Assembly: GCA_039621445.1 (NCBI GenBank)
Contig: CP154954.1
Coordinates: forward strand, 40,479,572-40,543,571
Direction of reading: 5' to 3'
Length of the DNA: 64,000 bases
Source: Euglena gracilis
Taxonomy: Eukaryota
Every line of letters starts with the position of its first letter. Positions within the stretch are counted from its first letter, which is position 1. Under the pieces are notes generated by a model. The model had not been told where the DNA came from. It did no database searches and saw nothing but the letters and a program-made list of their open reading frames with translations. Position numbers and translations under genes: made by a program. Positions 19,861 through 63,421 of the stretch are shown here, piece by piece.

Positions 19861-20136
19861 CAGGGTTTTTTTTTTAGCCTTCGCCCCCCTCCCCCTGGGG
19901 GGGGGGGTAGGGTGGGTGGTTCCCTTGGAATCCCTCCCCCGGGGGGAGGTGTAGGGGCTGGTGGGTATATCTTTTTCGACGCTGAAGGCACCGAAAATTT
20001 TGAAAAGGTGCCATTTTCAGCATTTTGGCCATTTTCGGGCAAAAGTGGGTGGGTCCCCCCCGGGGGGGGGGGGCTCGCGGGGGGGGGGGGGGGGGTGGAT
20101 GCCGACCCCCTCCCCCCCGGTCTTAAAAAACCCCTG
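19861..20136. mobile_element. hAT-like MITE, CAGGG(T)n...(A)nCCCCTG family
   Basis: TIRs CAGGGTTTTTT / AAAAAACCCCTG. Flanks GCTCCACC / GCTCCAAT (6 of 8 match). Confidence 0.75.
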
Positions 20137-20472
20137 GCTCCAATGCCAAATTTTCTTTTTGTTGCAAATTTTCTGTTATTTTCCCAATTTTTGCCCACTT
20201 GAACGCTTTTGTGAAACTCAAGGGGGGGCGATTATGATGATGAAAGTGAAGGAATTTTTTGTTGAATCCCGGAAAGGTTTGGAGCAGGCTTCTTTTGAGT
20301 GAACGTCTTTTTTGGCCCCCAAAATGCCCCCCCCCCGGACTTCTTCCTTCGCTTTTTGGGGGGTGCAGGGCACCCCCCTCCCTCTTCAAAAAAAAGAACT
20401 CTTCCCTTTTTTCCGGCATTATCCCAAAGTGCTTTTGCATTTCCGCATTCCCCTTCCCCCCCAATCTCACAG

Positions 20473-20541
20473 TTCCGTGGCTGCCGGTGGTGGCTGGTCC
20501 CCCTCCTCACCGCCATCGGCTCCGCCAGCTGGACACGCAGG
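20473..20541 (+). CDS. Exon A6 (FRGCRWWLVPLLTAIGSASWTRR)
   Basis: CTCACAG acceptor, phase 0. An in-frame TGA follows at 20551, so a GC donor (AGG|GCGGCG) is inferred. Confidence 0.65.
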
Positions 20542-20753
20542 GCGGCGCTGTGAAAATGGGATGTCTTTTCGGGAATGCACCCCCCAAACTGGGCGATGAG
20601 GGTTTTCTCACAACAGAACCCCCCCAACCCTGGTCGGTGAACACCCAAATGTATTTCTCAGTGCAAAGCGGCAAATCTTCTCTGCGGTGTTTGTCCTCCC
20701 TGACAGGTAGTTGCAGCTCCCTAACAGACCCATTTTGGGGTTTTGGCCAGAAG

Positions 20754-20935
20754 CAGGGGATTTTTTTAGTCTTGGACCCCCGGAGGGGAGGTGGGTGTGC
20801 CCGGCGAAGCCCCCCCCCCCAGGGGGATGTTTTTGAAAAGGTGCTGGTTTCAGCATTTTTGCGATTTTTGGCCATTTTGGGGGGAAAGTGAGTGGGACCC
20901 CTGGGACCCCCCCGGTCTTTAAAAAAAAACCCCTG
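20754..20935. mobile_element. hAT-like MITE with perfect 8-bp TSD GCCAGAAG
   Basis: GCCAGAAG|CAGGGGATTTTTTTAG ... TTTAAAAAAAAACCCCTG|GCCAGAAG. Confidence 0.9.
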
Positions 20936-20976
20936 GCCAGAAGTGTCCACCAAGGAACGGCGCGCCCCTGCCGCAG

Positions 20977-21081
20977 ATCTCACCCATCGACAGCTGCCTG
21001 GCCAACACGTTGGCGTGGGCAGTGGTGGCCGGCACCTACAGCTGGCTGTGGGTGGATTACCTCCGCCCACGGCTGCTGTGG
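20977..21081 (+). CDS. Exon A7 (ISPIDSCLANTLAWAVVAGTYSWLWVDYLRPRLLW), putative transmembrane segment
   Basis: CCGCAG acceptor, GTGCCG donor, phase 0/0. Confidence 0.72.
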
Positions 21082-21433
21082 GTGCCGCGCCGCTACCCAT
21101 GCTCCGCGATCGGGGGGCTTTTTGCCCTGGGTGTAGTTGGTCAAACTGTCTCTCACCCAGAGTTCGATAGGCCGGGGGGGGGGTCGTCCCCCCATTGACC
21201 GGAGGGTCTCACCTGACCCGGGTCCTTTGGGGGTGTCTTTCTGTCCACCTGGGATGACACCTGGGGGGTGTCATCCCCCCCACCTGCCTTTTATGTTGCA
21301 CCCTGCCCACACCCCATCTTGTTGGCATTCCCACTTGCCCCACCCCTTTGGACATGATTCAGATTTGGCGCTGTTTTGCACCTGTCCATTTAAGTTTACG
21401 CTGTCTGTCTATCGATCTCCCTGGGGTCATGTC

Positions 21434-21771
21434 CAGGCAATTGCTTAAGCACTGCCCCCCCCCCCCCGGTGACTGGTTTTTTCAAAGTGACTGACTGGTT
21501 TTGGGCCCGGCCCCCCTCCCCCCCCCTGGGGGGGGGTCGGCCAGGAGTGGGCAAAAGTGGCTTGAGTGACCCCGGCGCCGAAGGCGCCGGAAAAATTTTT
21601 GGGGCCTAAATGGCCTAAAGTGACTGGAAAGTGGCCGTTTTTCTGAGTGGCCGACCCCCCCCCCCCGGGGGGGTGGTGACTGGCTGGTTTTTTGAAAATG
21701 AGTGACTGACTGGTTTTTAAAAAAAATGGAGTGACCCCCTCCCCCCCCCCGGGTCGGTAAGCAATTGTATG
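21434..21771. mobile_element. hAT-like MITE, CAGGCAATTGCTTA family, perfect TSD GTCATGTC
   Basis: GTCATGTC|CAGGCAATTGCTTA ... TAAGCAATTGTATG|GTCATGTC. Internal GTGACTG repeats and a CGGCGCCGAAGGCGCCG palindrome. Confidence 0.88.
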
Positions 21772-22010
21772 GTCATGTCACAGAGGCAGCCAAATTTTCA
21801 TTTGGTTTTGATGTATTCCTTCCTGGGGGGTGGTCGCCTGCACTTGAGTGATTGACTGTCAATTTTTAAGGAAACATTCAAATTTTCGGACCCAGATGAG
21901 AGTGGGGAGGGGGGAAGTTCCAACGCTCAGTTCATTTTCTCACAATTTCTGAGACTCTCAGCATCTGTTGAAATGGAAAAGGCTGCATCGCCCCCCCTCC
22001 CCCTGACAAG

Positions 22011-22093
22011 GGGCCCCCCGCCGCTAGCCGCCGCCGCCCTCGTCCACGCTACCGCTGCCCGCCTCCGCCCCCTCGTCGAAGGCAACGGCTACG
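22011..22093 (+). CDS. Exon A8 (GPPPLAAAALVHATAARLRPLVEGNGY)
   Basis: AAG acceptor, GTGGGC donor (phase 1). Needs a 1-nt indel in the C run to join A7 in frame. Confidence 0.55.
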
Positions 22094-22509
22094 GTGGGCC
22101 ACGCCCTGCCTTAGAATCCCCCCACCCCCCTGGCTGGAAATGTGTTTTGATTTGCTTTTCATTTGACAGCGTGGCCAGACTTCTTTTTTGAGGAAAGTCG
22201 CACCGCACCCCTCAGGGTGAGTGCTGTTGGCAGGTTGGGGGAGGTATTTTTGATCCCCACCTGGGGGGGGGGTCAAGTTTTGGGGTGAGCAGTGCTACAG
22301 CACATCCGGTGTCGGGGGGGGAGGCTGAAAATGGCCATTTGCAAAGGGAAAATGGCTGGGTCGGAAGGCACCAGGGGCCGAACCCCCCCCGGGGGTGCCT
22401 GTCATGGGCAGGCGCCCCACTGCACAACGCACAAACCCTGGGGGTTTGTAAAACGAAGCCTGAGCGTGGCCCCTTCCTTCCCTCCCCTCCCCCGCCCCCT
22501 CCCCCTGAG

Positions 22510-22610
22510 ACCAGGCGTGGCGGCACAACGCCGCCTACTACGGCGTGCGGCTGGCCCACCTCATCGCTATCGCGGCCGGCGGCCTGGGGGACCTGGGCCT
22601 ACACGCCCTA
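22510..22610 (+). CDS. Exon A9 (..AWRHNAAYYGVRLAHLIAIAAGGLGDLGLHAL); start ambiguous (22510, 22513 or 22515)
   Basis: Strong coding bias. GTCCTA donor, phase 0. Confidence 0.68.
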
Positions 22611-23261
22611 GTCCTACACCCAGGCTTCCTTTCTTACTTCTTTCTTTTCCTTCTTTTCCCCCTGCTTTGGGGGGGGGCAGGGCGTGCCGTGACCCTCCCT
22701 CCTCCCAAATTATTCTCGTGGTTTCGCAGGCATTCTAAACTTCACTGACACCACCCCGGGGCACATGGAACGGGGAGGGGGGTCCAGGGTGCGGCCACCT
22801 CTGCCTCCGGGGTGGGTGGGGCACTGCATGTGGCTTTCGGGCAGGCTTTTTGGTGCCAGGCCCATCTCCTTTCGGCGCCAGAAAAGGGCCGTTTTCAGGC
22901 AAATTTTAGCCAACGGCCATGCATCCACCAGTCCACCACACCCAGAACAGGGTAGCATTGCACAAAAAAAATTGGTTTGGCAAGGCGATGAACGAATGAT
23001 TTTACTGAAAGTTCGACGCTCTGGAAATACGACAAGGCTTGTGTGACTTGGCTTAAGGCTTGTAGACAATACGACAAGGGGCAGACCCCACCCTGCCCAG
23101 GATGGGGGTGAGGGGTCAGGGATCCCCTACCACCTCCTGAGTATTTTTTTTGGAGATTCTCTTCAGCCTTTCGAGGCACAAGGCACATGTGCAGTTTCAA
23201 ACGGGAAAAAGCCTGCCGCCAAGCCCCCGCCCCCTTCATCAACACCCGCAGCCCCCTCCAG

Positions 23262-23351
23262 TGCTGGCGGGACCGACAACCGCCCCCACCGCCTGGCATG
23301 ATCGCCTGGTTTCGCGAAGCCCTCGGGCTCGGCAACCCCCCTGCCGTACAG
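23262..23351 (+). CDS. Exon A10 (CWRDRQPPPPPGMIAWFREALGLGNPPAVQ)
   Basis: CTCCAG acceptor, CAG|GCCGTT GC donor, followed by a 52-nt intron. Confidence 0.62.
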
Positions 23352-23403
23352 GCCGTTGCCTAACCCCCCACCCCTCAGCCCCCTTTCCTGCACTTCGCGG
23401 CAG

Positions 23404-23474
23404 AACAGCCAGGCCAACCCTCCTTCAGCGGTGGACCCTCCTCCAGCGCTGGGGTGGCTTCGAAGGAACTCAGG
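23404..23474 (+). CDS. Exon A11 (NSQANPPSAVDPPPALGWLRRNSG)
   Basis: GGCAG acceptor, GTTTGT donor (phase 2), followed by a 63-nt intron. Confidence 0.58.
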
Positions 23475-23537
23475 GTTTGTGTTCAGCTGAAGCTGGGGGG
23501 ATGGGACACCCGGGCCACCCCGTCCCTCCCATCAAAG

Positions 23538-23633
23538 GCAATGGCTTGCCGCCGCACCGCCTGCCGCACCGCCGGCGCAGCCTGGAGCGCCGCCGCCGGC
23601 CGATGCTGCGGCGCAGGAGCCAGTCCAGCCAGG
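23538..23633 (+). CDS. Exon A12 (QWLAAAPPAAPPAQPGAPPPADAAAQEPVQPG)
   Basis: AAG acceptor, GTTCAG donor, phase 2/2, consistent with both neighbours. Confidence 0.62.
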
Positions 23634-23820
23634 GTTCAGTGCCCAGAGTTCGTGAATTCAGACGTTTTTTTTTAAAAAATTTTGTTGTCCGGGGTGGGGG
23701 GGACGAACCTCCTCCCCGGGGCCGCCGGTGTCATGCCAGATTTGCTTTTGTTTTTGGTGCGAGTTTTTTTTTGGACCCCAAAATTCCCCAAACGTCGGTC
23801 CCCCCCCCAAGCACCCCCCC

Positions 23821-23949
23821 CAGGGTTTGATATAAGGAGGGCGAACATGGTTTAGGTTGGGGGTTGTCCCCCACCCCCCCCCCTCCTGGCCTGCAGGGGG
23901 GTCCGGACCACCCCCCCACCTGTCCTTATCAAATCCTTATCAAATCCTG
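23821..23949. mobile_element. Short hAT-like MITE, CAGGGTTTGATATAAGG family
   Basis: CAGGGTTTGATATAAGG ... CCTTATCAAATCCTG in a poly-C target. Looks like an internally deleted relative of 28531-28966. Confidence 0.75.
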
Positions 23950-24043
23950 CCCCCCCCCCGGTCCCCCCCAGGGGAAGGTGTGACCAACCAGGACCCTCAT
24001 GGCAGGAAGTGAGCGTTAGTTTTGAGCAGGGGGGTCTGGGGAC

Positions 24044-24271
24044 AAAGGTTTTTTTTTTAGCCTTGAACGCCGAGCCCCCCCTCCCCCTGGGGGGGTCCCC
24101 CCAGGGGGTGGTGGGATGCACTTTTCGACGCCGAAGGCGCCGGGAATTTTTGAGCGAGGTGCTGTTTTTTGCATTTTCACGATTTTTGGTCATTCTTTGG
24201 GGAAATTGATTGGTCCCCCGGATCTCCCCCGGGGGGGGGGTCCCACCCCCTGGTCTTAAAAAAAACCCCTG
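24044..24271. mobile_element. hAT-like MITE with perfect TSD CTGGGGAC, left TIR decayed
   Basis: CTGGGGAC|AAAGGTTTTTTTTTTAG ... CTTAAAAAAAACCCCTG|CTGGGGAC. Confidence 0.82.
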
Positions 24272-24598
24272 CTGGGGACCCCTGAAACCCAGAAAAAACC
24301 CTTCCCTGGTCTTTTGTGCTTCTTTTGGCCTCTTTTTGCCAATTTGTTGAATAAATCTCCAAAATGCGATTTTGCAATATGCACAAAAACGGCATAAAAT
24401 GCATTAAATAAGAGGTTTTGGGGGGGGAAGAAACGCAAAAAAAAAATGAATTTTCTGTTCTTTTTTGGAGCAGTCTGTTGTTATTTTTTCCAGTTAAATT
24501 GATTGTTTGGTGGGAGTATGTCCTGAAATCAGACAGGCGTGGCTACCTTTGGGATGGGGTATCCTTCTCAATGCCCCCCCCCCCCCCGTGCCGCACAG

Positions 24599-24674
24599 CC
24601 CCAGTGCTGCGCCCTGCACACGACCAAACGCCCTGCGCCGGGCGTGGAGGAAGTTGAAGACCAAGCTGCGGTGA
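24599..24674 (+). CDS. Exon A13, probable last coding exon (PSAAPCTRPNALRRAWRKLKTKLR*)
   Basis: GCACAG acceptor, phase 2, TGA at 24672-24674. The overlapping GTGAAC could alternatively be a donor. Confidence 0.6.
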
Positions 24675-26496
24675 ACAGAGGACATCGCCATCAATTGATG
24701 CCCAAGGATGGTAAATGGTGTCTATGTGCATTGGTGGTGCATGTTCACACAACATGAGATTGCGCCCCATCTTTGTTTGGCCGGGCCAGATTTTCAAAGT
24801 TTCGTTTCAAACGGAGCAATCTCTTTTTGGATGTTCAATGACTGGGAAGGGAAGGCCCAGGGTTGCCAATTGGGGGCTGAGAGGAGGGGGCAGGGGGGGG
24901 GGCTTTAACTTGTCATCAGTCCCTCGCCACCTGCAGATTGATGAATCATCAATTTTCCCAAACTTGGAATTTTTAATTCAGTTTTCCCTCAGTCATTGCG
25001 TCATTCTTGTTTCCTGCCATTTTATCCGGATAATATGTTGTATGTACCAAGGTGTGCACATGCATGTGTTTGTATGAAATATTACTGGGTCAATTTTATT
25101 CTTCTTTGTTGTTTTTTTTTACGATCCTTGGCGCCAGCCAAAGCCCAAGCCCAAGCCCGGGGCTAGCGCCCGGTGCCCATGGGCCTGGGGCAGGGAATTT
25201 CTTGAGCTGACCCCCTCCGGTGGGGGGGACGCTCAAGGGATTCCCTGGAGACTGGGGTGTGCCATCCCTCTGGGGAGGGCAAACCCACGGGTGGAAGCCT
25301 TGGCTGGGCACTCCTTGGAGGGTTGAGTTTTTGTCTGGTGTTTTTTTTTATTTTTTTTCCCAACAATCGGGCCTTTTTTTTTGAGTTTGGTGTCAGAAAA
25401 AGAAGAGAATTGGTTTGTTGCAAACAAAAAAAGGCACCTTCAGCACCCAATAGCGGCATTGGGTTTGAGATTTCCCAGCAAACGTTCTGGGTGAGAATTT
25501 GGGGTTGGCTCTTGAGGGAAGGCAGAGGAGAGGGTCTGGTTCCCCCCCCCCCCGCTTTCTGCATCCACAACCGGAAGCAAACTCATCCCTCGTAGGATTG
25601 CCCAGCCAGCCCCCCACCCCCCCCCTCCCCCCTCCCAGGCCAAAATGGAAATGGCCTGAACGTTTTGTTTTGGAGGGTTGCATGCAACTTTCAAGGGTTT
25701 CAAGGGTCAAACCCCCCTTTTCCTCTATTTTTGGCACAATGAGTTTCAGCCTCCAAAAATGACCCCCTATGGAATTAGTCCCTCACAAAGGTTTTTTCCC
25801 CCAAAGGATGGCGGCAGGTGGGGGGGCATGGACGGATCGGGAGGGGGGCAAATCTGCACCCCTGGAAGGTCTACCCAAAGTGCCGATTTTTGGGACATTT
25901 TTTTGAGCCCCCCCCCAAATTTGACCGCGACAAGAGGAACCCTTTGAGCCGTTGGTGGCCACCCCCAAGGAATGGGTGGGTTGGTGCCGACCTCCCTAAT
26001 CCTCGTGTTTCCCATTCTGGCCTGGCCGTGCCACAGGCTGACTGTGATGCAATGGCACCCCTCGCCCCGAGAGGGAGGGGTCAAGGCCCATCCCAGCAAA
26101 GGAAGCAAATCAAACCCAGATTCGAAGACTTTTCACTGCCTGGAAAAAAAGCACTGGGGACCCCCCCTTTGTGCCAAAATTTTGGCATTTTTGGCAAAAT
26201 TTCCCCCCAAGTGCCCCAAAATGACATTCTGGCCGCTTTGGTGGGGGGGGCAACGTTTTCCGTCTGGTGCTTTGCGCTGGACCAAAAATGGATCACCTGG
26301 ACCCTGGCTTCTTTTCAAGTCAGCAGAAACTAGGGTATGGGTTTCAGCGCGAAGGGAAATGGCCTCAAACAGCCCGATTTTATTGGGGGGAGGGGTCCCC
26401 CCCCCTGCACCGGGCTGGGTTGGGGGACCCCACCCCGGCGTTGTTTGGGGGGGGGGGGCTGGACCGGAGGAGAGCCCAACCGATATGAGTTGGGGT

Positions 26497-26769
26497 CAGG
26501 GATTTTTTTAAGTTTGGCCCCCGGGGGGGGGGGAGGGGGGGGTAGGGTGGGTGGGTCCGCCGGACCCCCTCCCCCCCCCCCCCGAGGGGGGTGGGATATA
26601 CTTTTCGGCGCCGCAGGCACCGAAAAAATTCTATTTTTAGCACTTTTCGCGATTTTTCGGCCATTTTTTGTGGGTCCCCCGGACCCCCCTCCCCCCCCCG
26701 GGGGGGCCCCCCCCGGGGAGGGGGGGGGGGCCCCCCCTCCCCCCCCCCCCGGTCTTAAAAAAACCCCAA
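26497..26769. mobile_element. hAT-like MITE, CAGGGATTTTTTTAAG family, right TIR decayed
   Basis: Body nearly identical to 30250-30517 and 41378-41646. Flanks GTTGGGGT / CTTGGGGT (7 of 8). Confidence 0.85.
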
Positions 26770-26863
26770 CTTGGGGTGCATCGCATCACAGCCAACCAGC
26801 CCCGCACGGGAGACCCCCATCCCTCACCCACTGACCACCCCCCACCACCCCCACCCCCACCAG

Positions 26864-27058
26864 GGCCATGGGCACCAAGTGGTGCTGGCCCCTGGCGCAC
26901 CTGCTGGCCAGCCCGGGTGATGGGAGCTGCCACGCCCTCGCCCTCCGCCCCACCGCCGCTGCCACCACCGCCATCGCCACCCCGTGGCAACCATCCGTTG
27001 GTCAGCGCCCCTGCTCCAACGACGCCTCCGACTGCCACCACCGACGCCCCCCGTCAGC
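26864..27058 (+). CDS. Candidate GC-rich exon, frame ambiguous (AMGTKWCWPLAHLLASPG... or PWAPSGAGPWRTCWPARV...)
   Basis: CACCAG acceptor, non-repetitive GC-rich island, two open frames. Confidence 0.4.
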
Positions 27059-27139
27059 GTCCCCGGTCCCACCGAGGCCTTTTTTTGCTCATACAAAGGC
27101 TGTACAGTTTTGGGAGAGGGAGGTTGTTAAGGTTGGAAT

Positions 27140-28163
27140 CTGGGGGTTTCTTTAGTCTTGGACCCCCGGGTGGGGGGGTGGGGGGTCCAGGGATGGATGG
27201 GAAGCCCTTCGGTATTGAGGTAGGTGGTGGGGGGGGTCCCTCCCTAGGGGGGTGAGGTGGTCGGGGGGGGGGGGTCCGGACCCCCCTTAGACGTTGGGAG
27301 GAGGGTTCAAAAAAATTCAAAACTGAGCATTTTTGGATCGATTTTCAAAGAAAAATCAGGGATTTTTGACCGATTTTGACCCAATATCCGGCCTTTTGCC
27401 CGTCCATGAAATCAAAAAATCTTTGCCCCCCCTCAGTTTCGAGGTACCGGGGGGAAAAAATTGGATGCCGAAAAAATTGATTGGGAAAAAATTGGCGTAC
27501 AGAAATCCTGCCAAATTTTTCCGGGCCTTTTTTGAAAATCCTGCCTCAAAATTTTGAAAATCACCCTTTTTCCAGTCATCTTGCATACAAAACCTGCCAA
27601 TTTTTTTGGGCCGTTTTCTGGTTTGGCACCAATTTTTTCGGCTTCCAATTTTGTCGGGTCTAATTTTATCTAGCTTCAATTTCCCCCCCCCCCCCGGTAG
27701 GGGGGGTCCGCCCCCCCCCCCGTGTCGGGAGGGGGTCCGACCCCCCCCCCGTGTCGGGAGGGGGTCCGACCCCCCCTCCCCCCTCCCTCAAGGCTTCCAA
27801 CATTTTTGGGGGGGAAAACCACCAACACATCAAAAAATGGGAAATATGTCCAAAAGTCAGCAAAAGGGGTGTTATTGCTCTTTTCCGGCGCTGTGCGCCG
27901 GAAGAAAATTTTCTGCTATTTTTGGCACCTGTCGAGGAGGGGGGGTCCGGCCAAGTCCCCACCCGGGGTCCACCCAGCGGGGGGTGGGGTATATTTTTCG
28001 GCGCCGAAGACATCAAAAATTTTGAAAAGGTGCTATTTTTAACATTTTTCGCGATTTTTTGGCCATTTTGGGGGGAAATTTAGTGGGTCACCCGGGACCT
28101 CTCCCTCCCCCAGGGGGTGGGTGGGTGAGGGAACCCCCCCCTGGTCTTAAAAAAAAAACCCTG
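27140..28163. mobile_element. Composite MITE: outer CAGGG/CCCTG family with an inner GGATGGGAAGCC family element from 27188
   Basis: GTTGGAAT|CTGGGGGTTTCTTTAG ... CTTAAAAAAAAAACCCTG|GTTGGAAA (7 of 8). Inner CAGGGATGGATGGGAAGCCCTTCGGTATTGAGG is the reverse complement of the right end of 29958-30241. Confidence 0.7.
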
Positions 28164-28530
28164 GTTGGAAACCTCCCAGGAGTGAAGGGACCGGACGCAA
28201 AGTTTTTTTTGTTTTGTCTCTGGCAAAAATGGGCAAAGGGGGCCAAAGTGTGGCCAACCGTTGCCAAAAGTGGCAAAAACGACCAAACATGGCAAAAAGC
28301 GGTCAAAAATGCCTAAAAATTCCCAAAAGTGTCCCAAAAATGTCCAAAACTGGCCAAAAGTGGCCAACCGTAGTCAAGACATAGCATAAATGGCCAAAAA
28401 CAGCCCAAAAATGGCCATATACCCCCATCTATGGTAAATTTTCCTCTGACTTGGGGTCCACTCCGCTTGTCTAACGACCACCACCACCCCCTGGTCGAGA
28501 CGAACATTGGCCATTTTAGCGACCCCCCCC

Positions 28531-28966
28531 CAGGGTTTGATATAAGGAGGGCGTACATGGTTTAGGTGGGGGGGTGTCCCCCCCACCCCCCCCCCCCTCC
28601 TGGCCCGCAGGGGGGGGTCCGGACCACCCCCCCCCCCCCACCTGCAAGGGGGGTCCGGACCGACCCTCGGGGGCGAAAATTGACCCCCCCAAAAAGGGTC
28701 AATTTTTTCCTCCGGCGCTTTGCGCCGAAAATTTTTTGCATTTTTCGCACATTTTTGCCCAAAAAGTGCCCAAAATGGCACTTTTGGTCGTTTTGGGGGG
28801 TCAAAAATTTTCGGCCCGGCGCTTTGCGCTGGGCCGAAAATTCGGCCACCCTGACCGCGCACCTGTTTAGGTGGGGGGGGTGTCCCCCCCCACCCCCCCC
28901 CCCCCCTGGCCCCCAGGGGGGGGGGTCCGGCCCACCCCCCCCCACCTGTCCTTATATCGAACCCTG
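28531..28966. mobile_element. hAT-like MITE, 18-bp TIR CAGGGTTTGATATAAGGA, TSD CCCCCCCC
   Basis: C8|CAGGGTTTGATATAAGGA ... TCCTTATATCGAACCCTG|C8. Confidence 0.88.
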
Positions 28967-29304
28967 CCCCCCCCGTCAGACACGAACATCAGTGGTCGTT
29001 GGACAAGGGGGGGGGGTAGGGGGACCTTCTCCTGCCCTTGTATCCAGTGACCCGTTTCCTCAAAAAAATTTTCATTGTATTTTCTTTTCCCTTTTGGCAA
29101 GGACTCAGCCGACCACGGGCACCCCGGGGCTGCCCCCCCCCCCTCGGGGGTGTGCCCCCCCCCGGTCGGTAAAAAAAAAGCCTGGTACCTGCTGACCTGA
29201 CCTCCTGTACTCGCTGATTTGTCTGGAGACAGTTTCCAGGGGGAGAGGAATTCTGTGCTTGCACTGGAAACTGGCCTGCCTGTGAGTCAGCCCACAACAC
29301 CAAC

Positions 29305-29872: not shown

Positions 29873-29957
29873 CCCCAGTCCGTATGGCCCCTGGCTTCCG
29901 CCACGTGGGACATAACAACGTGGTGTGCCTCTATTTGAGCCTGCTGTGTGTTGACAC

Positions 29958-30241
29958 CACGGTTGGATGGGAAGCCTTGAGGGGGGGGGGGTCGGACCCC
30001 CCCTCCCGACACAGAGGGGGGGGATGGGCAAAAAATGGGCAATATGTCCAAAAGTCAGCAAAAGGGGGTGTTTTTGCTCATTTTCCGCAGCGGAAGAAAA
30101 TTTTCTGCTATTTTTGGCACCTGTCAAGGAGGGGGGGGGTGGGAGGGTCCGGACCCCCCTCCCAACATCTGGGGGGGGGGGGGTGGTCCGGACCCCCTCT
30201 ACCACCTACCTCAATACCGAAGGGCTTCCCATCCAACCCTG
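29958..30241. mobile_element. hAT-like MITE, CA(C/G)GGTTGGATGGGAAGCC family, perfect TSD GTTGACAC
   Basis: GTTGACAC|CACGGTTGGATGGGAAGCC ... GGCTTCCCATCCAACCCTG|GTTGACAC. Confidence 0.9.
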
Positions 30242-30249
30242 GTTGACAC

Positions 30250-30517
30250 CAGGGATTTTTTTAAGTTTGGACCCCGGGGGGGGGGAGGGGGAGGGGTAGG
30301 GTGGGTGGGTCCGCCGGACCCCCTCCCCCCCCCGGAGGGGGGTGGGATATACTTTTCGGCGCCGCAGGCGCCAAAAAAATCTATTTTTAGCACTTTTCGC
30401 GATTTTTCGGCCATTTTTTTGTGGGTCCCCCGGACCCCCCTCCCCCCCCGGGGGGCCCCCCCCAGGGGGTGGGTGGGTGGGGGGACCCCCTCCCCCCCGG
30501 TCTTAAAAAAACCCCTG
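30250..30517. mobile_element. hAT-like MITE, CAGGGATTTTTTTAAG family, perfect TSD GTTGACAC
   Basis: GTTGACAC|CAGGGATTTTTTTAAG ... CTTAAAAAAACCCCTG|GTTGACAC. Confidence 0.92.
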
Positions 30518-30939
30518 GTTGACACCCTCTCCATTGGTTGTGTCTCCCCATTGGAATGTCTCTGTGTGTTTGAGAAGGGAACACGTGTGGGGGTGGGTCC
30601 ACCCTGGGGTGCCTCAAAAATCTGAATTGTGCCTGATCATCTGAAGCCCTGGGCAAATGACGGATTTTGGGATGCATGGGATCCGTGGTGGTTTCTCCTG
30701 TGGAACGGTTGGGAATATCGAAACTGACAATAGCCTGGAAGGACTCGAGGAAGCCTCTCTCCTCAATATTTCCCCCTCACAGGCTCCCCGTGGTTTTATC
30801 AGCAGCCCCATTATGTGCGCTCCATCCGCAGCTTGGCAAACAGCCCCCTGGGCTTTATGTGGTATGTGTGTGTTTGTGTGTGGGGGCGTTGTTTTAAGGG
30901 CCAGATTGCCTCAATGCCAGGAAAGCGGGGGGTGCCAAA

Positions 30940-31207
30940 CAGGGGTTTTTTTGTCATGGACCCGGGGGGGGGGAGTAGGGTGGGTCGTCCGGCCAAGCCC
31001 CCCACCCGGGGGGGGGTCCCCCCGTAGGGGGGTGGGATATACTTTTCAGCGCCTTTGGCACCGAAAATTTTTGAAATTGTGCATTTTTTAACACTTTTCG
31101 CGCTTTTTCGGTCATTTTTTTGTGAGCCCCCCGGGACCCCCTCCCAGGGAGGGTCCCCCCCAGGGGGTGGGTGGGGGCCCTCCCCCCTGGTCTTAAAAAC
31201 ACCCCTG
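30940..31207. mobile_element. hAT-like MITE with perfect TSD GTGCCAAA, inserted into a solitary 200-bp satellite monomer (~30895-31345)
   Basis: GTGCCAAA|CAGGGGTTTTTT ... AAAAACACCCCTG|GTGCCAAA. The flanks join into CCAGATTGCCTCAATGCC...GTGCCAAA...CCAGCCCCCGGGACCAGG. Confidence 0.9.
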
Positions 31208-31787
31208 GTGCCAAAATGCGCAACCAGCCCCCGGGACCAGGTCAGCTGGGTTCCCCACCGCCAAAAACCCCATCAATGCCAGAACCACTGCCGCCCGCCT
31301 CCCCCCGAACAGCAAAATTTTGGCAATTTTTAGGTATAAATCAGGGCATGGGGGGTGGTTTTGGAAGCAGACCTTAGAAGGTCGCATGATACCCAAAAGG
31401 ATGGGTTCTGTTGCAGGGTGACAGACAAGGTTTTCTTTCTGTGACGAGATCCTATTTTGGGGGAATTCCACATCCCCCCCCCAATACCAGCCTTAAAAAT
31501 GCCAAACGAAGCCCAGCAAACTGGGGGTTCAGCCCAACAGCGCAGTTCCCACCTTGCAGGCCGCGGTGGGCAGCCCCTCAGCCCCGGCCCCTCAGCTCCA
31601 CCCAGCGCATCTGCCAGGCCTCTTTTTCTCCCCATCCCCTTGCTTTTGGGATCTACGCCCCCTCCCTCCCTCCCAGCGCAGTCTCCCCTCCCTCCCAGGG
31701 GGAGGCTGGTGGGTGGCCCACAGGGATGCCGGCCCCCCATCAGTCCCCCCTGTTTTTCGCCCTCTCCCCCCCCCTCCGGTTTGAAAG

Positions 31788-32015
31788 GTGGCCACGACAC
31801 GCAGCGGTTGGCACGCACGCCGGGGGCAGGGTTGGCGGGCGGCCCACAGCGATGTGGGCGGCCCACCAGCCCTCCCCCAACCCCCCATCCCCTCCCTCCC
31901 ATGTCCCATCCCCCTCCCTCCTGGAAAGGAGGCCGCCCCCGAGGCTGCCCCCCCCCACCACCGCCCCCGGCGCCCCGGCGCCACTAAGCGCGGCTGGGCC
32001 AGGGCCCTGGGCCAG
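31788..32015 (+). CDS. Two candidate exons, 31788-31853 (VATTRSGWHARRGQGWRAAHSD) and 31929-32015 (EAAPEAAPPHHRPRRPGATKRGWARALGQ), split by a 75-nt intron
   Basis: AAG acceptors, GTGGGC and GCAAAC donors, phase 0 compatible. Confidence 0.4.
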
Positions 32016-40750: not shown

Positions 40751-43140
40751 GTCCGTAACCCGGCGTCGCTGACGCCGGTTCTGTCATCACAAAAAGCATT
40801 GTTAAAAATGTCCCAAAATGGCCGAAATAGGTCATAGAGGTCCTGATTTGACTGTTTTAGCCATGTGTTGCATTGTAATTTGCAATTTGGGGACCACTGG
40901 GGTGGGTCTGCGGGTGTTCCCTGTGACCCAAACCATGCCCTATGCATGTGACGCACCTTCCGCACCTTCTGCAGATTCATTGCAAGAAATGATGATTTCT
41001 TGAGATTGAGCAATTACCATTCTTTGGATGATGGAACCTGATGTTGAAACCATTGAATACTTGGAAGACGACAACGAAGATTTGGACGACAATTTATGAA
41101 GGTGATGTCTCTCACGAAGTTGAGGATGACAATATTGAGTGCTTTTTGAGTCAGCAAGGTTTGTCGAAATTTGAAAGCAGCCAGCCAATTCTGTTTCTGA
41201 CGTGTTTTTTGACCCCATGTATCACCAAAGCAGCAAAATTTTGGAAATTTTGAGGTGTTAATTGCTCGGGGTGGGGGCCCGATTGCCTCAATGCCAAAAA
41301 ATGGGGGGTGCCAAAAAGTGCGACCAGCCCCCGGGACCAGGCCAGCTGGGCAGCCACCTCCCAAAACCCATATATACCAGGGATTTTTTTAAGTTTGGAC
41401 CCCCGGGGGGGGGGGGGGGGGGGGTGGGTCCGCCGGACTCCCCCCCCCCCCCCCCCGGGGATCCCCCCGGGGGGGGGTGGGATATACTTGTCGGCGCCGC
41501 AGGCGCCGAAAAATGCTATTTTTAGCACTTTTCGCGATTGTTCGGCCATTTTTTGTGGGTCCCCCGGACCCTCCTCCCCCCCGGGGGGGGCCCCAGGGGG
41601 TGGGTGGGTGGGGGGGGGACCCCCCCGGTCTTAAAAAAAACCCCTGATATATACCCATACATATACATACATAAACATACACGAACACATATACCCTAAA
41701 CCCAAAACAAAAAAAAATATATCCCACCCTGGGGGGTCCTCCTGGAGGGGTGCTCCCGGAGGGGGGTGGGATATATTTTTTGGCGCGGAAAAATTGCTAT
41801 TTTTAGCATTTTTTTCACGATTTTTGGCCATTTTTTTTGTGGGTCCCCTGGGACCGCTGGGGGGGGGGGTAGGGGGTGGGTGGGTGGGGGGGATCCCCCC
41901 TCCCCCCTTAAAAAAAAACCCCTGTCAATGCCCCCAAATAGCAAAATTTTGGAATTTTTTTTGGTATAAATTGGTTGGTTGGGGGGGGGGTGATTTTTGA
42001 GGGCCAGATTGCCTCAATGCCAAAAAATGGGCGGTGCCAAAGAGTGCGTCCAGCCCCCGGGACCAGGCCAGCTGGGTTCCCCACCCCCAAAACCCCGTTG
42101 TCACCAGAACGGCTGGTGGTCAACACCCCCAAATGCTGGGTTCCCCACCCCCCAAAACCCCGTAATCACTAGAACGGCTGATGGTCAACATCACCCAAAC
42201 AGCAAAATTTTGGCTGCATTTTTGGTATAAATTGGTTGGTTGGTTGGTTGGGGAGGGGTGATTTTTGGGGATTGCCTCAATGTCCGTAACCCGGCGTCGC
42301 TGACGCCGGTTCTGTCATCACAAAAAGCATTGTTAAAAATGTCCCAAAATGGCCGAAATAGGTCATAGAGGTCCTGATTTGACTGTTTTAGCCATGTGTT
42401 GCATTGTAATTTGCAATTTGGGGACCACTCGGGTTGGGTCTGCGGGTGCTCCCTGTGACCCAAACCATGCCCTATGCATGTGACGCACCTTCCGCACCTT
42501 CTGCAGATTCATTGCAAGAAATGATGATTTCTTGAGATTGAGCAATTACCATTCTTTGGATGATGGAACCTGATGTTGAAACCATTGAATACTTGGAAGA
42601 CGACAACGAAGATTTGGACGACAATTTATGAAGGTGATGTCTCTCACGAAGTTGAGGATGACAATATTGAGTGCTTTTTGAGTCAGCAAGGTTTGAAAAC
42701 AACCAGACAATTCTGTTTCTGACGTGTTTTTTTGACTCCATGTATCAACAAAATTTTGGAAATTTTGAGGTGTTAATTGCTCGGGGTGGGGGCCCGATTG
42801 CCTCAATGCCAAAAAATGGGGGGTGCCAAAAAGTGCGACCAGCCCCCGGGACCAGGCCAGCTGGGCAGCCACCTCCCAAAACCCATATATACCCATACAT
42901 ATACATACATAAACATACACGAACACATATACCCTAAACCCAAAACAAAAAAAAATATATCCCACCCTGGGGGGTCCTCCTGGAGGGGGGCGGGATATAC
43001 TTTTTGGTGCGGGAAAGTTGCTTTTTTTAGCTTTTTGCGGGATTTTTGTCCATTTTTTTGGGGGTCCCCGGGGCCCCCCCCGGGGGGGGCCCCCGGGGGG
43101 GGGGTGGGGGGGGGGATCCCCCCTGTCAATGCCCCCAAAT
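40751..43140. repeat. Local segmental duplication (~0.85 kb): 40751-~41940 vs 42282-~43140
   Basis: Near-identical from GTCCGTAACCCGGCGTCGCTGACG to CCCTGTCAATGCCCCCAAATAGC. Copy 1 has an extra MITE. Confidence 0.93.
41378..41646. mobile_element. hAT-like MITE with perfect TSD ATATATAC; empty site present at 42885-42892
   Basis: ATATATAC|CAGGGATTTTTTTAAG ... CTTAAAAAAAACCCCTG|ATATATAC versus a single ATATATAC in the paralogous copy. Confidence 0.95.
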
Positions 43141-50700: not shown

Positions 50701-50768
<68 letters not shown>

Positions 50769-56700: not shown

Positions 56701-59700
56701 CAAAGAGTGCGTCCAGCCCCCGGGACCAGGCCAGCTGGGTTCCCCACCCCCCAAAACCCCGTTATCACCAGAACGGCTGATGGTCAACACCCCCAAATAG
56801 CAAAATTCTGGCAATTTTTGGTATAAATTGGTCGGTTGGTTGGGGGAGGGGGGGGATTTTCGGGGCCAGATTGCCTCAATGCCAAAAAATGGGGGGAGCC
56901 AAAGAGTGCGCCCAGCCCCCGGGACCAGGCCAGCTGGGTTCCCCACCCCCCAAAACCCCGTTATCACCAGAACTGCTGGTGGTCAACACCCCCAAATAGC
57001 AAAATTTTATCAATTTTTGGTATAAATTGGTAGGTTGGTTGTGGGGGGGGGGTGTTTTTGGGGGCCAGATGGCCTCAATGCCAAAAAATGAGGGTAGCCA
57101 AAGAGTGCGCCCAGCCCCCGGGACCAGGCCAGCTGGGTTCCCCACCCCCCAAAACCCCGTTATCACCAGAACGGCTGATGGTCAACACCCCCAAATAGCA
57201 AAATTTTTGGCAATTTTTTTGGTATAAATTGGTCGGTTGGTTGGGGGCGGGGGTGATTTTCGGGGCCAGATGGCATCAATGCCAAAAAATGGGCGGTGCC
57301 AAAGAGTGCGCCCAGCCCCCGGGACCAGGCCAGCTGGGTTCCCCACCCGCCAAAACCCCGTTATCACCAGAACGCTTGATGGTCAACACCCCCAAATAGC
57401 AAAATTTCTGGCAATTTTTTTGGTATAAATTGGTCGGTTGGTTTTGGGGCGGGGGTTTCGGGGCCCGTTTGCCTCAATGCCAAAAAATGGGGGGAGCCAA
57501 AGAGTGCGCCCAGCCCCCGGGACCAGGCCAGCTGGGTTCCCCACCCCCCAAAACCCCGTTATCACCAGAACGGCTGATGGTCAACACCCCCAAATAGCAA
57601 AATTTTTGGCAATTTTTTTGGTATAAATTGGTCGGTTGGTTGGTTGGGGGGGTGATTTTCGGGGCCGGAATGCCTCAAAGCCAAAAAATGGGGGTGCCAA
57701 AGAGTGCGCCCAGCCCCCGGGACCAGGCCAGCTGGGTTCCCCACCCCCCAAAGCCCCGTTATCACCAGAACGGCTGATGGTCAACACCCCCAAATAGCAA
57801 AATTCTGGCAATTTTTTTGGTATAAATTGGTCGGTTGGTTGGGGGGGGGGATTTTTGGGGCCAGATGGACTCAATGCAAAAAAATGGGGGGGGCCAAAAA
57901 GGGGGCCAACCCCCCGGGACCAGGCCAGCTGGGTTCCCCACCCCCCAAAACCCCGTTGTCACCAGAACGGCTGGTGGTCAACACCCCCAAATAGCAAAAT
58001 TCTGGCAATTTTTTTTGGTATAAATTGGTCGGTTGGTTTTGGGGCGGGGGTTTCGGGGCCCGTTTGCCTCAATGCCAAAAAATGGGGGGAGCCAAAGAGT
58101 GCGCCCAGCCCCCGGGACCAGGCCAGCTGGGTTCCCCACCCCCCAAAACCCCGTTATCACCAGAACGCTTGATGGTCAACACCCCCAAATAGCAAAATTT
58201 TTGGCAATTTTTTTGGTATAAATTGGTCGGTTGGTTGGGGGGGGGGGGTGATTTTCGGGGCCAGATTGCCTCAATGCCAAAAAATGGGCGGTGCCAAAGA
58301 GTGCGCCCAGCCCCCGGGACCAGGCCAGCTGGGTTCCCCACCCCCCAAAACCCCGTTATCACCAGAACGGCTGATGGTCAACACCCCCAAATAGCAATAT
58401 TTTGGCAGTTTTTTTGGTATAAACTGGTCGGTTGGTTGGGGGGGGGGGGCTGAATTTTGGGGCCAGATGGCCTCAATGCCAAAAAATGGGGGGAGCCAAA
58501 GAGTGCGCCCAGCCCCCGGGACCAGGCCAGCTGGGTTCCCCACCCCCCAAAACCCCGTTATCACCAGAACGGCTGATGGTCAACACCCCCAAATGGCAAA
58601 ATTTTTGGCAATTTTTGGGTATAAATTGGTCGGTTGGTTGGTTGGGGGGGGGGGGTGATTTTCGGGGCCAGATTGCCTCAATGCCAAAAAATGGGGGGAG
58701 CCAAAGAGTGCGCCCAGCCCCCGGGACCAGGCCAGCTGGGTTCCCCACCCCCCAAAACCCCGTTATCACCAGAACGGCTGATGGTCAACACCCCCAAATA
58801 GCAAAATTTTTGGCAATTTTTTTGGTATAAATTGGTCGGTTGGTTGGGGGCGGGGGTGATTTTCGGGGCCAGATTGCCTCAATGCCAAAAAATGGGGGGG
58901 TGCCAAAGAGTGCGTCCAGCCCCCGGGACCAGGCCAGCTGGGTTCCCCACCCCCCAAAACCCCGTTATCACCAGAACGGCTGATGGTCAACACCCTCAAA
59001 TAGCAAAATTTTGTCAATTTTTGGTATAAATTGGTCGGTTGGTTGGGGGGGGCTGATTTTTGGGGCCAGATGGCCTCAATGCCAAAAAATGGGGGGAGCC
59101 AAAGAGTGCGCCCAGCCCCCGGGACCAGGCCAGCTGGGTTCCCCACCCCCCAAAACCCCGTTATCACCAGAACGGCTGATGGTCAACACCCCCAAATGGC
59201 AAAATTTTGGCAATTTTTGGGTATAAATTGGTTGGTTGGTTGGGGGGGGGGATTTTCGGGGCCAGATTGCCTCAATTCCAAAAAATGGGGGGTGCCAAAG
59301 AGTGCGCCCAGCCCCCGGGACCAGGCCAGCTGGGTTCCCCACCCCCCAAAACCCCGTTATCACCAGAACGGCTGATGGTCAACACCCCCAAATGGCAATT
59401 TTTTGTCAATTTTTGGGTATAAATTGGTCGGTTGGTTGGTTGGGGGGGGTGATTTTTGGGGATTGCCTCAATGCCAAGAAATGGGGGGAGCCAAAGAGTG
59501 CGCCCAGCCCCTGGGACCAGGCCAGCTGGGTTCCCCCACCCCCCAAAACCCCGTTATCACCAGAACGGCTGATGGTCAACACCCCCCAAATAGCAAAATT
59601 TTGGCAATTTTTCGGTATAAATTGGTTGGTTGGTTGGTTGGTTGGTTGGGGGGGGGATTTTCGGGACCGGATAGCCTCAATGCCAAAAAAATGGGCGGTG

Positions 59701-61400
59701 CCAAAGAGGGCGTCCAGCCCCCGGGACCAGGCCAGCTGGGTTCCCCACCCCCCAAAACCCCGTTATCACCAGAACGGCTGATGGTCAACACCCCCAAATG
59801 GCAAAATTTTGGCAATTTTTGGTATAAATTGGTCGGTTGGGTTGGGGGGGGGGGGGCCAGCCAAATGGGGGGGAGCCAAAGTGGGGCCCCCCCCCCCGGG
59901 CCCCCCCCGCCCCCGTTCACCCCCGTTATCCACCCCAAATTGGTTCCCCCCCAATTTTTGGGTATTTTATAAATTGGTGGGGTGATTTTTGGGGCCAGAG
60001 GCCTCAAACCAAAAAATGGGGGAGCCAAAGAGTGCCCCCCGGGGGCCAGCTGGGTTCCCACCCCCCAAAACCCCGTTATCACCAAAACGGGTACAATCCA
60101 AAGGCAATTTTTTTTTTGTAAATTTGGGGGTGGTGGGAGCCAAAGAGTGGCCAGCCCCCGGACCAGGCCCTGGGTTCCCCCCCCCCCCGTTATCACCAGA
60201 ACGGTCAACACCCCCAAATGGTCAAATTTAAATGGGAAAATTGGTGGGGGTTGGGGGGGTTTTTGGGGGGGGACCAGATTGTCCTGCCAAAGGGGGGGGC
60301 CCGGGCCAGCCCCCGGGACCAGCACTGGGCCCCACCCCCCCCCCCCAACAAACGGCCAATACCAAAAAAATTTGGCAATTTTTTGCTATTTTGGGGTTGG
60401 ATTTTTGGGGATAAGGGGGTGGGGGGGGTGGGGCCCAGCCCCCGGGACCAGGCCAGCTGGGGCCCCCCCCCCAAAACCCCCCGACTGGGTCAACACCCCA
60501 AATATTTGGCAAATTGCGTTTTTGGCCCCCAAAATGTTTTTGGTGGTGGGTGGGGGCGATGGGCAACCCCCAGCCCAAAATTCCCCCCACAAAAGGCTGG
60601 TCCCCAGAAAGCCCAAATTCCAAAAAAGGGGGTAGCCAGGTAAAAATTCCCCACCCCCCAAAAAATAATCACCATCAAACGGCTGTGTCAAAACCCCCAA
60701 TAGCAAAATCTGGCAATTTTTGGGGGTCGGTGTGATTTTTGGGAGCGAAATTCTGCCAAAATGACCTGCAACCCCCCAAGGGCTGGCCCCCCCCCACAAC
60801 CCCGGATGGGTTCCCACCCCCCCCAAAAAGAAGAAAGGAGGTAAAAAAAAGCAAATAAGAAAGGAATGGTATAAAAGGGAGGTTGTTGTGGGAATTTTTG
60901 GCGAATGGAAAAGAGAAAAAAGGGGAGGACAAAGAGTGCGAGCCCCCAACAGGCCAGTGGGTTGACCCCCCAAAAGAAGAAGACCAACAGAAACGGGAGA
61001 AGTCAAACCCCCCAAATAGCAAAAGAAGGCACATTTTTTGGAAGTATAGAAAGGGGGGGGGGGGGATTTTTTGGGCCAGATGGCCTCAATGCCAAAAATG
61101 AAAGCCAAAGTGAGGAGGAAAGCAGCCAAGCCAACCCCCCACCCGTTATCACCGAACGGCTTGTCAACACCCCCAATAGCAGTGTATTTGGACCTTTTGT
61201 CGTTTGCAATCAAAAATGGGGGAGCCAAGTGCGCCCAGGGGTTCCCCAGCCACCCCCGTGGTCAACCGCATTTTTTTTTCAAAACCTAAATTGTCACATG
61301 GGGAAACATGACATGGCGTTTGTGTCCCCCCCCCCCCAAACCCCCCCGTGTCAACGGCACTCTTCCTGGTATAAATTGGTCGGTTGGTGGGGGGGGGGAG
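41925..61400. repeat. ~200-bp satellite array, about 90 monomers (main body 43125-59850, decayed or noisy beyond)
   Basis: Monomer GGTATAAATTGGTCGGTTGGTT(G)nTGATTTTCGGGGCCAGATTGCCTCAATGCCAAAAAATGGG..GCCAAAGAGTGCGYCCAGCCCCCGGGACCAGGCCAGCTGGGTTCCCCACCCCCCAAAACCCCGTTATCACCAGAACGGCTGATGGTCAACACCCCCAAATAGCAAAATT. Confidence 0.98.
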
Positions 61401-62924
61401 GAGGGTACTGCCAAAAAACATGTTTTTGAGGTGGACCCCCTTTTGTGAATTGTTGGTGTTATTGTTTCCTCCAGGTGAGTACACAGTGCAATACAGGAAC
61501 TCAACTGAACTAAGGACCATGGTTTTTTGGGTTGCACACACAGGCCGGTGGGTTCTTCGCACGCAGTCCCACGCCACTGCCACACACTTGCTTCCCCGCG
61601 CACACACCACCCCAACACTCACGCAAACCCTCACCGCATATGCACTCAGAAGTGGTGGAACCACACATCAAAATTTCGAGCTTGTGTGTGATTTGTTGTT
61701 TGGTGGGCAGGGGGGGCCAAAATGGGGAGGCTGGCAGCCGGCCCCCCCCCGCAGGAGCGGCACGCAGGAGCGCATGGCTCGCCCTTGCCCCCCACCTCCA
61801 CCTGCCCAAACCGTCCACTCCTTGGCCAGGTGTGGTGTTTTGGCCTGCATCAGTGGGAAGGGGGGCTGGGCTGTGAGCGAGTGTCCGCATTCCGGTTGAC
61901 CAGAATGAAAATGGCAACGGTGTCAAAAAAAAGGCAAAGCACCAGATTCTTCCGCACCAATTTTTTTGGTTCAATGGGAGGTGAGGGTGAAAGTACCCCC
62001 CCCCCCCGTGATCATGGTTTAATGTTAAGAATTTCCGTCTTGAAAAACCTGCTGCCAGCCTTTCAAGCTCAAAAAAAAACCAGTCCCCCGTATGACCACC
62101 ATGTTTTTTTTTTTCAAACCGCTTGTTCCTGGGGGTTCCCCCTTCCCCCCGTGCCCTGGAAATTGGGCATGGCAGACATGAACAGGGGGGGAGGGGAATC
62201 AAATTTTTTTGCATAATGCAGCACAACTTAAAACGGCTCCGCCCCCAAATTTTTTTCCATTTTTTTTTTTTTTTTTTATTATTGAAATTTTTTTTTTTTT
62301 TTTTGAATTCCTTTGGGTTTTTTTGTTTTTTTTTTTTTTTTTGCATTTTTTTTTTTTTGCATAAATACCCCCCCCCCAAGGAAAAATGGTTTGTAAGTTT
62401 CCGAAGTCTTGAAAAATGCTGCCCCCTTTGGATTTGCATATTGCATCACAAAATCAAATATTTTTTCCCTGGAAAATTTTTTTATTTTTGGAATGTTGCC
62501 ATATTTTATTGGAATTTTGGCAGGGCAGCATAAAATATTTTGCCCTGGAAAAAAATTTTCCTAGGCAGCAAAGCTTGATATTCCAGCTCTCATGTTTTTC
62601 ATGCAAGTTGCATTTTTTTGCATTTTTTTGCATTTTTTTGCATTTTTTTGACTTGCATAATTTGAAGGGCCCAGTTGCATCCCCCCCGGGCTTTTCTAAA
62701 AAAATTTTGCTATTTTCGACGTTTTGGTGGATGGATCTAGATCAAAGCTGGGGGCTGTGATGGAGGAAGCGGTGGTGAAGGGAAAAAATGCAGGCTGGCC
62801 CCGACTTTATTTCACTCGCCCCCAGGGGGGGGGGCTCCCTGCCCGAATTTGGGCTGCTGGCTGGATTTGAGCTGGCTGGTTGGACCCCTCCACGTGGTGT
62901 GTCGGGAAGGAGGCCAGCGCCAGC

Positions 62925-63421
62925 CATACATCTCTCTAAGGTTTTGCGAACCCCCCCCCCCCCGGGGGGGGGCGGCTGCAGCCAGCCCCGATTTGGGCCC
63001 AGCCCAAGCCTCAGCAACAGCCCCCCCCCCGGGGGGGGGTGCTGCTAGCCCAGCTAGCCAGCCCATTTTTTTTTTGGGGGTCCAGCCCAAAATTTTTCGG
63101 GGGGGCGCGAAGCGCCGAAATTATTTGAAAAACTTTGTTCAAAATTGGCCAAAAATGGGGTTTGGGGGGTGTTTGGGGCATTTTTGGGGGGTTTCAGAGG
63201 CATCAGCTGGGTTTTTTCAAACTGTGTTCTGCAGGTCATTTTTTGGGGCATTTTTTTTTTCCGATTTCAGTCCAGCCTCGCCCGGTTCGGGTCCAGCCGG
63301 GGCCTAGCCCCCCCCCCCCCCCCCGGGGGGGGGCGGGCTAGCCAGCCCAAATTTCTAGCCAGCCCAAATTTCTAGCCCTAGCCCAGCAACCCCCCCCCCG
63401 GGGTCCTTAGAGAGATGTATG
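62925..63421. mobile_element. hAT-like MITE, 17-bp TIR CATACATCTCTCTAAGG, perfect TSD GCGCCAGC; partial second copy at ~63600-63720
   Basis: GCGCCAGC|CATACATCTCTCTAAGG ... CCTTAGAGAGATGTATG|GCGCCAGC, with internal CTAGCCC subterminal repeats. Confidence 0.92.

Follow-up and report, generated by a model that had tools for sequence, protein, structure and literature searches.

Where do the nonconventional introns of euglenids come from, and by what means are they removed? Both questions have stood since the 1990s, and an origin from MITEs (miniature inverted-repeat transposable elements) has been suggested repeatedly, without a named transposon family, a superfamily or a length for the target-site duplication (TSD). 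They are raised anew by a stretch of 64,000 nucleotides from Euglena gracilis (contig CP154954.1 of assembly GCA_039621445.1, positions 40,479,572 to 40,543,571 of the forward strand; hereafter the window), in which an initial annotation had noticed short elements between positions 19861 and 63421 whose ends and flanking repeats reproduce the junction signature of these introns. Based on the analysis below, the elements are very probably non-autonomous hAT-like MITEs in a repeat region with no recognisable genes, ordinary insertions as they stand in the window and a plausible source of Euglena-type introns.

Insertions flanked by 8-bp duplications

Elements were collected by a scan from 8-bp direct repeats and by a scan from inverted repeats followed by flank identity at every length, and BLAST of every element against the window added degraded copies, which were then inspected. 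The result was 14 intact MITEs of 129-1024 bp in six end-families, A to F, defined by their terminal inverted repeats (TIRs). This agrees with the initial annotation, which had counted about 14 short elements from at least six TIR families and whose named elements lie where it had placed them. Family A has eight copies, family D two, and families B, C, E and F one each. The TIRs are short, start with CA(G/T/C) and finish with (C/A)TG apart from mutated ends at 24044 (left) and 26769 (right), and pair at 10 or more of 12 positions in 11 of the 14 copies. The copy at 20754 reads GCCAGAAG-CAGGGGATTTTTTT...AAAAAAAAACCCCTG-GCCAGAAG and that at 30940 reads GTGCCAAA-CAGGGGTTTTTTT...AAAAACACCCCTG-GTGCCAAA, each a textbook insertion.

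The two TSD copies are identical at all eight positions in 10 elements, at seven in three and at six in one. When exact flank identity was scored by length, k = 8 accounted for 10 of the 14 elements (13 with at most one mismatch allowed) and k = 7 for two, both poly-C sites, while none of the 14 had an exact repeat at k = 9-14. All of the TSDs listed earlier (GCCAGAAG, GTCATGTC, CTGGGGAC, GTTGACAC, GTGCCAAA, ATATATAC, GCGCCAGC and C8) were confirmed, and AGCGTGGC at 22168-22470 is a further exact one. Window-wide, CA..TG pairs with an inverted repeat of at least 10/12 and an exact flanking repeat numbered nine at k = 8, three at k = 7, two at k = 6 and none at k = 9 or 10. Against the nine observed at k = 8, the null of ten third-order Markov shuffles averaged 0.1 and never exceeded 1.

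Empty sites exist for two of the insertions. The paralogue of the 41378 copy (42765-42988) is identical to its left flank at 128/128 positions and to its right flank at 104/104, and carries a single ATATATAC. It belongs to a segmental duplication, 40751-41377 versus 42282-42892, with 96% identity over 629 bp. For the 30940 copy, 67 satellite units serve as empty sites, in each of which the match to the left flank and that to the right flank have exactly eight bases in common. The 41378 and 30940 copies are real transposon insertions with true TSDs, and they were recently mobile. A chance origin of the repeats, which we also considered, is untenable given the shuffle control and these empty sites. 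Since the duplicates differ by a family A insertion, they provide a relative date for the insertion at 41378, and we infer that family A at least moved after a duplication whose halves are still 96% identical, that is, recently. The other part of this segmental duplication, 41647-42134 versus 42885-43343, has 84% identity.

Target preference and superfamily

The duplicated sites are biased at both ends. Position 1 of the TSD is G in 9/14 (p=0.004), position 2 is T in 8/14 (p=0.007), position 7 is A in 7/14 (p=0.019) and position 8 is C in 10/14 (p=0.0007), which amounts to a preferred palindromic target of the pattern G-T-n-n-n-n-A-C. T2 and A7 occur together in 6/14 sites (binomial p=4e-5), or in 5/13 (p=3e-4) when a GTTGACAC site shared by two elements is counted once, and in family A alone T2 and A7 are each found in six of eight copies. 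As such, the earlier remark that many of the sites fit nTnnnnAn is borne out. It had also been stated that position 6 is mostly a purine and that a pyrimidine-purine (Y|R) step at TSD 5|6 would explain the same tendency at both intron junctions. A purine is indeed present at position 6 in 9/14 sites on the plus strand, but this is not above chance (p=0.20); with a pyrimidine at position 5 in 7/14, and corresponding counts of 10/14 and 8/14 on the minus strand, the Y|R step is not significant.

The shared site lies at 29950-30525, where unrelated E and A MITEs adjoin and GTTGACAC occurs three times, the second insertion having used exactly the 8-bp site that the first had duplicated. This arrangement suggests either strong site selection (GTnnnnAC) or targeting beside an existing end.

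Transposons of the hAT superfamily carry the terminal motif YARNG. We take the CAGGG, CAGAC and CAGGC ends to agree with it, which covers families A, C, D and E (12 of the 14 copies, with a CAGGG or CAGAC start or with one end mutated). Membership in hAT is proposed because of these CAGGG-type ends, the 8-bp TSD, which is seen across the 14 elements, stands out in the shuffle control and is confirmed at the two empty sites, and the target bias, with T2 and A7 combined as given above. In the hAT element Hermes, 8-bp TSDs are likewise formed at nTnnnnAn (PMC10368747). The elements thus resemble the MITEs of the Ac/Ds, hobo and Hermes group in their 8-bp TSDs, short TIRs starting with CAG(G/A) and nTnnnnAn targets (PMC10368747), as well as in being non-coding and in having filled and empty sites that differ by the element plus one TSD copy. 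Unlike that group, they have a target consensus extending to G1 and C8, several unrelated bodies ending in the same terminal trinucleotides, two families (B and F) of the CAT..ATG type, and no autonomous partner in the window.

Pfam was searched with 101 open reading frames (ORFs), comprising 99 of the 461 that reach at least 80 aa, chosen by length, complexity and position outside satellites, and two picked by hand, and no family was matched. The elements are therefore non-autonomous; a hAT transposase encoded elsewhere would move them in trans, cutting the target with an 8-bp stagger.

Several observations weigh against this assignment. Neither a transposase nor a hAT domain was found among the 101 ORFs, which leaves the superfamily resting on TSD, ends and bias. 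Neither family F, with CATAC...GTATG, nor one of the two family B ends (CATAC) fits YARNG, and the poly-C TSDs of family D are uninformative. Pairwise identity within family A is only 64-92%, and most copies are old. Metagenome contigs scanned for the right end of family A gave 0 matches, and a protein search with a MITE-spanning ORF found no relative at E<=0.001. P, Merlin, Mutator-like and Zisupton elements can also make 8-bp duplications, and one of these superfamilies might be favored by the CATAC starts and by the window's want of a transposase. Set against it are the CAGGG ends, a TSD length of 8 throughout, cases of 9 or 10 bp being absent, and the frequencies of T2 and A7 in family A, which follow the Hermes-type hAT pattern (PMC10368747); we consider such a superfamily unlikely. 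As transposons the elements are ordinary, new families of a known kind.

Relation to nonconventional introns

The link to introns lies in the arithmetic of the duplication. If an intron is taken to run from position 6 of the left TSD copy through the element to position 5 of the right copy, CAG falls at +4..+6 and CTG at -8..-6, and removal leaves one TSD. The 3 + 5 = 8 relation drawn in the initial annotation is correct, and its two examples, 20751-20940 and 30937-31212, correspond exactly to TSD[6-8]+element+TSD[1-5]. In Euglena, knock-in experiments have defined the code as 5'-N3CDG-/-CH'GN5-6|R with paired ends (PMC12501133). The donor spacer of 3 nt tolerates no change of +/-1 nt, the acceptor spacer of 5-6 nt tolerates +1, and splicing requires an exon-start purine and pairing beside the motifs; five of five wholly artificial 50-bp introns built on this code were spliced (PMC12501133). 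Among the present copies, 8/14 keep complementary CDG/CH'G ends, and 7/8 of these have the would-be exon-start R on at least one strand, in line with N3-CDG...CH'G-N5-6|R. Because the CAG...CTG ends with at least 10-12 paired bases are combined with 8 = 3 + 5, an exonic copy in a Euglena-type host would satisfy the code whenever TSD position 6 is a purine, and its excision would remove the element with one TSD copy and give back the original mRNA. With a perfect TSD, nine registers yield the same mRNA, and junction reads therefore show removal and not the 5|6 register.

Considering published introns, the likeness includes CAG at +4..+6, CTG at -8..-6, inner pairing and direct repeats at the junctions (PMC12501133, PMC3935182, PMC4770533), and the A/C tendency at exon +2/+3 of those introns equals TSD positions 7/8 here. 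Euglenid nonconventional introns are defined from mRNA and not as transposon families, whereas the copies in the window are known from DNA alone. It is plausible that elements of this sort gave rise to such introns, with only ordinary insertions present in the window.

RNA coverage of the elements was checked by aligning three RNA runs that share the species label, about 5-6% of every run being read, on 19501-35500. Depth was roughly 0-6x in 27 of 30 bins, and about 0-1x over unique sequence and over each element except at read-catching poly-G/C tracts. Poly-G/C tracts anchor the remaining three bins, where depth is about 20x and the loose ends are poly-G or poly-C, which indicates repeat capture and not expression of the locus; about 95-99% of the aligned reads fitted only partly. 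G/C homopolymers inside the MITEs (20077-20095, 26523-26583 and 28884-28907) catch hundreds of RNA reads with a poly-G/C remainder, and false joints between distant places and opposite strands arise from this capture. Among the joints listed (the strongest 15 of 142), none removes an element with a TSD copy, and none is a back-joined (circular) read over an element, the region not being expressed. The junction reads anticipated earlier were thus not seen, in an interval, 19.5-35.5 kb, that is essentially uncovered.

A search for sequencing runs listed no RNA run containing the stretch; 20 rows match part of the stretch, all of them guessed as DNA or 'RNA?'. One run labelled 'RNA?' (X15) gives every one of the 30 bins a low, uniform depth and in this resembles DNA. 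Its joint 30919->31224 was considered as an excision and rejected, as it skips 304 bases and not 276, comes from 1 contig with a side of 22, and is most simply a satellite paralogue. The GT/GC-AG introns predicted around 20.4-22.7 kb, in which some copies were thought to nest in a twintron-like manner, are unsupported by any Pfam domain, gene or matching joint. Rfam at gathering thresholds returned 0 matches in the window, including ribosomal RNA and spliced-leader (SL) RNA. The region appears silent and is rich in transposons and satellites, without recognisable genes, and the mark of an intron, being transcribed and gone from mRNA, was not observed in these runs, the listed joints or Pfam.

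A more far-reaching reading takes the MITE families as an introner system in which exonic copies are cut at TSD 5|6, the 3-nt/5-nt code being derived from the 8-bp duplication. Euglena-type introns would then be made from hAT-like MITEs, "cut 3 nt before CAG, 5 nt after CTG" would mirror the 8-bp stagger of the transposase, and any exonic copy whose TSD has a purine at position 6 would be erased exactly from mRNA. We put this forward tentatively, as a possibility that we doubt somewhat more than we believe. In its favor, the geometry agrees exactly with the code that was defined by experiment (PMC12501133), and a MITE origin has already been proposed in print, though without the hAT or 8-bp link. 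In E. agilis, 84.4% of the introns have direct repeats at their junctions, the 'slidable' ones having been set aside from motif analysis (PMC12501133). Intron 4 of gapC in E. agilis ACOI 323, the only intron known as a recent, strain-specific gain, has eight-nucleotide junction repeats, the longest of those studied (PMC4770533), and one tubulin intron has nine possible positions, equivalent to an 8-nt repeat (PMC3935182). The initial annotation had held that young introns lacking 8-bp repeats would count against the idea; the gapC intron agrees with it in repeat length. Known introns have A at exon +2 in 43/55 and C at exon +3 in 30/55, for which no explanation is given (see also PMC3935182); these positions would be t7/t8 of the TSD, the right-half positions enriched here. 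The exon-start purine required for splicing (PMC12501133) is echoed at the intron start (51/55 of known introns), and in the introner reading the two match because they are copies of one base, through the duplication.

Opposed to this, neither an exonic copy nor transcription was seen in the 16 kb aligned with RNA, and none of the listed joints (15 of 142) removes an element. Insertion preference alone gives no Y|R, as the counts at t5 and t6 show; were the link real, Y|R would have to arise by selection of those insertions that can be spliced, and not from target choice. Intron positions +2/+3 are reported as non-conserved (PMC3935182), which demands decay of the intronic TSD copy, and the 8-nt repeat of the gapC intron is attributed by its authors to double-strand-break repair (PMC4770533). 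It had further been raised as possible that the elements are self-excising, which would mean splicing from RNA without host factors. End pairing is all that speaks for this, and a fold of the 41378 copy does pair its termini (z=-4.1); the 20754 copy folds no better than shuffles (z=-1.4), and the folds add little. The six families have only terminal CA..TG in common and no ribozyme-like conserved core, Rfam finds nothing in the window, and artificial 50-bp introns are spliced in Euglena (PMC12501133), an indication of trans-acting machinery that recognises a short code; published work assumes unknown trans-acting factors. Self-splicing is therefore very improbable.

If the introner reading is true, it accounts at once for the 3+5 spacers, for the junction repeats of 84% of introns, for the paired Y|R at both junctions as copies of one duplicated site, and for the exon +2/+3 A/C as the right half of a GTnnnnAC target. 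The question of origin could then be settled by counting in data already available (how long the repeats are, in which register they lie and which introns belong to a family), and the splicing machine would seem to have evolved against, or from, hAT transposition. A genome-wide study of 2025 left aside the 'slidable' introns with junction repeats, exactly the class on which the hAT idea makes predictions (PMC12501133). If it is untrue, the window is merely a transposon-rich silent region.

That a MITE-like origin had been suggested before is correct, and it is in print together with TSD-like repeats (PMC3935182, PMC4770533, PMC11282704, PMC12501133, PMC12621601). In the open literature searched, with subscription papers and supplements outside its scope, neither hAT, an 8-bp duplication nor the 3+5 relation was found for these introns, and the terms 'hAT', '8 bp' and '8-bp' do not occur in a review (PMC11282704). 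The intron idea thus sharpens the MITE-origin hypothesis into a precise, cheaply testable form that appears to be unpublished. Introners and other transposon-derived introns of Micromonas, Polarella, Amoebophrya and Fritillaria are comparable in being MITE-like, with TIRs and TSDs, and in being proposed or shown to become introns, and their TSD helps to restore the reading frame, as proposed here (PMC11282704). They differ in being spliceosomal, often with TSD-built splice sites, and in having 3-5-nt or other TSDs (PMC11282704), whereas removal of the present elements would follow a non-GT-AG code measured from the TIR, with a TSD of 8 bp.

Element coordinates and other repeats

Positions, duplications and ends of the elements are collected in Table 1. 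Within family D, the short copy at 23821 has 90% identity with the leftmost 103 bp of the longer copy, at 28531; within family A, the copies at 26497 and 30250 are 91.7% identical. Inside the A element at 27140, the interval 27188-27945 comprises an E-like end, from 27188, followed by some 470 bp of AT-richer, unrelated sequence and by internal pieces resembling E that reach to about 27945. The copies of GGGGGGTC on either side may mark this piece as a nested insertion having an 8-bp TSD of its own, with approximate limits.

Table 1. MITEs, the empty site and partial copies in the window (positions from its first letter; rc, reverse complement)
Feature	Span with TSDs	Body	Length (bp)	Strand	TSD	Ends and remarks
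Family A MITE	19853..20144	19861-20136	276	.	GCTCCACC/GCTCCAAT, 6/8	CAGGGTTTTTTT / rc CAGGGGTTTTTT, 11/12
Family A MITE	20746..20943	20754-20935	182	.	GCCAGAAG, exact	TIR 11/12
Family B MITE	21426..21779	21434-21771	338	.	GTCATGTC, exact	CAGGC.../...GTATG; TIR 10/12
Family C MITE	22168..22470	22176-22462	287	.	AGCGTGGC, exact	CAGAC.../...GCCTG; TIR 10/12
Family D short MITE	23813..23957	23821-23949	129	.	ACCCCCCC/CCCCCCCC, 7/8	TIR 11/12
Family A MITE	24036..24279	24044-24271	228	.	CTGGGGAC, exact	left terminus mutated, AAAGG
Family A MITE	26489..26777	26497-26769	273	.	GTTGGGGT/CTTGGGGT, 7/8	right terminus mutated, CCCCAA
Family A MITE, broken by other repeat DNA	27132..28171	27140-28163	1024	.	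GTTGGAAT/GTTGGAAA, 7/8	
Family D MITE	28523..28974	28531-28966	436	.	CCCCCCCC, low-complexity, uninformative	TIR 11/12
Family E MITE	29950..30249	29958-30241	284	.	GTTGACAC, exact	CACGG.../...CCCTG; TIR 11/12
Family A MITE	30242..30525	30250-30517	268	.	GTTGACAC, exact	left TSD copy shared with the E element (as its right copy)
Family A MITE	30932..31215	30940-31207	268	.	GTGCCAAA, exact	within diverged unit of 200-bp satellite
Family A MITE, filled site	41370..41654	41378-41646	269	.	ATATATAC, exact	
Paralogous empty site of the 41378 insertion	42885..42892			.	single ATATATAC	in segmental duplicate
Family F MITE	62917..63429	62925-63421	497	.	GCGCCAGC, exact	CATACATCTCTC, perfect 12/12
Family A fragments		14629-14745, ~14850-14926, 15152-15339, 41755-41924, 43013-43127				
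Truncated family F copy		63599-63719				

The window is repeat-dense throughout, at 50-62% G+C. A 200-bp satellite with a 398-bp higher-order form occupies 44216-59854 in about 78 units, with pure poly-T tracts, 60-100 bases long, interrupting it at about 47.8-50.8 kb; further units, diverged in sequence, are found at 13754-14315, 30.89-31.3 kb and 41.9-43.9 kb. A 78/112-bp satellite at 195-4319 is built of large blocks in inverted orientation, such as the arms 938-1346 and 2200-2608 (92% complementary). At 36857-38980, a 29/58-bp minisatellite of about 66 units has long open frames on both strands, which as satellite stood outside the Pfam set. A perfect 10-bp microsatellite, CTCGGCACGG, is repeated in 48 copies with 99% matches at 7706-8183, and a 24-bp tandem repeat at 13172-13560 has 16 units, one frame of which is a predicted acidic proline-rich peptide repeat (…EPEPLDE…).

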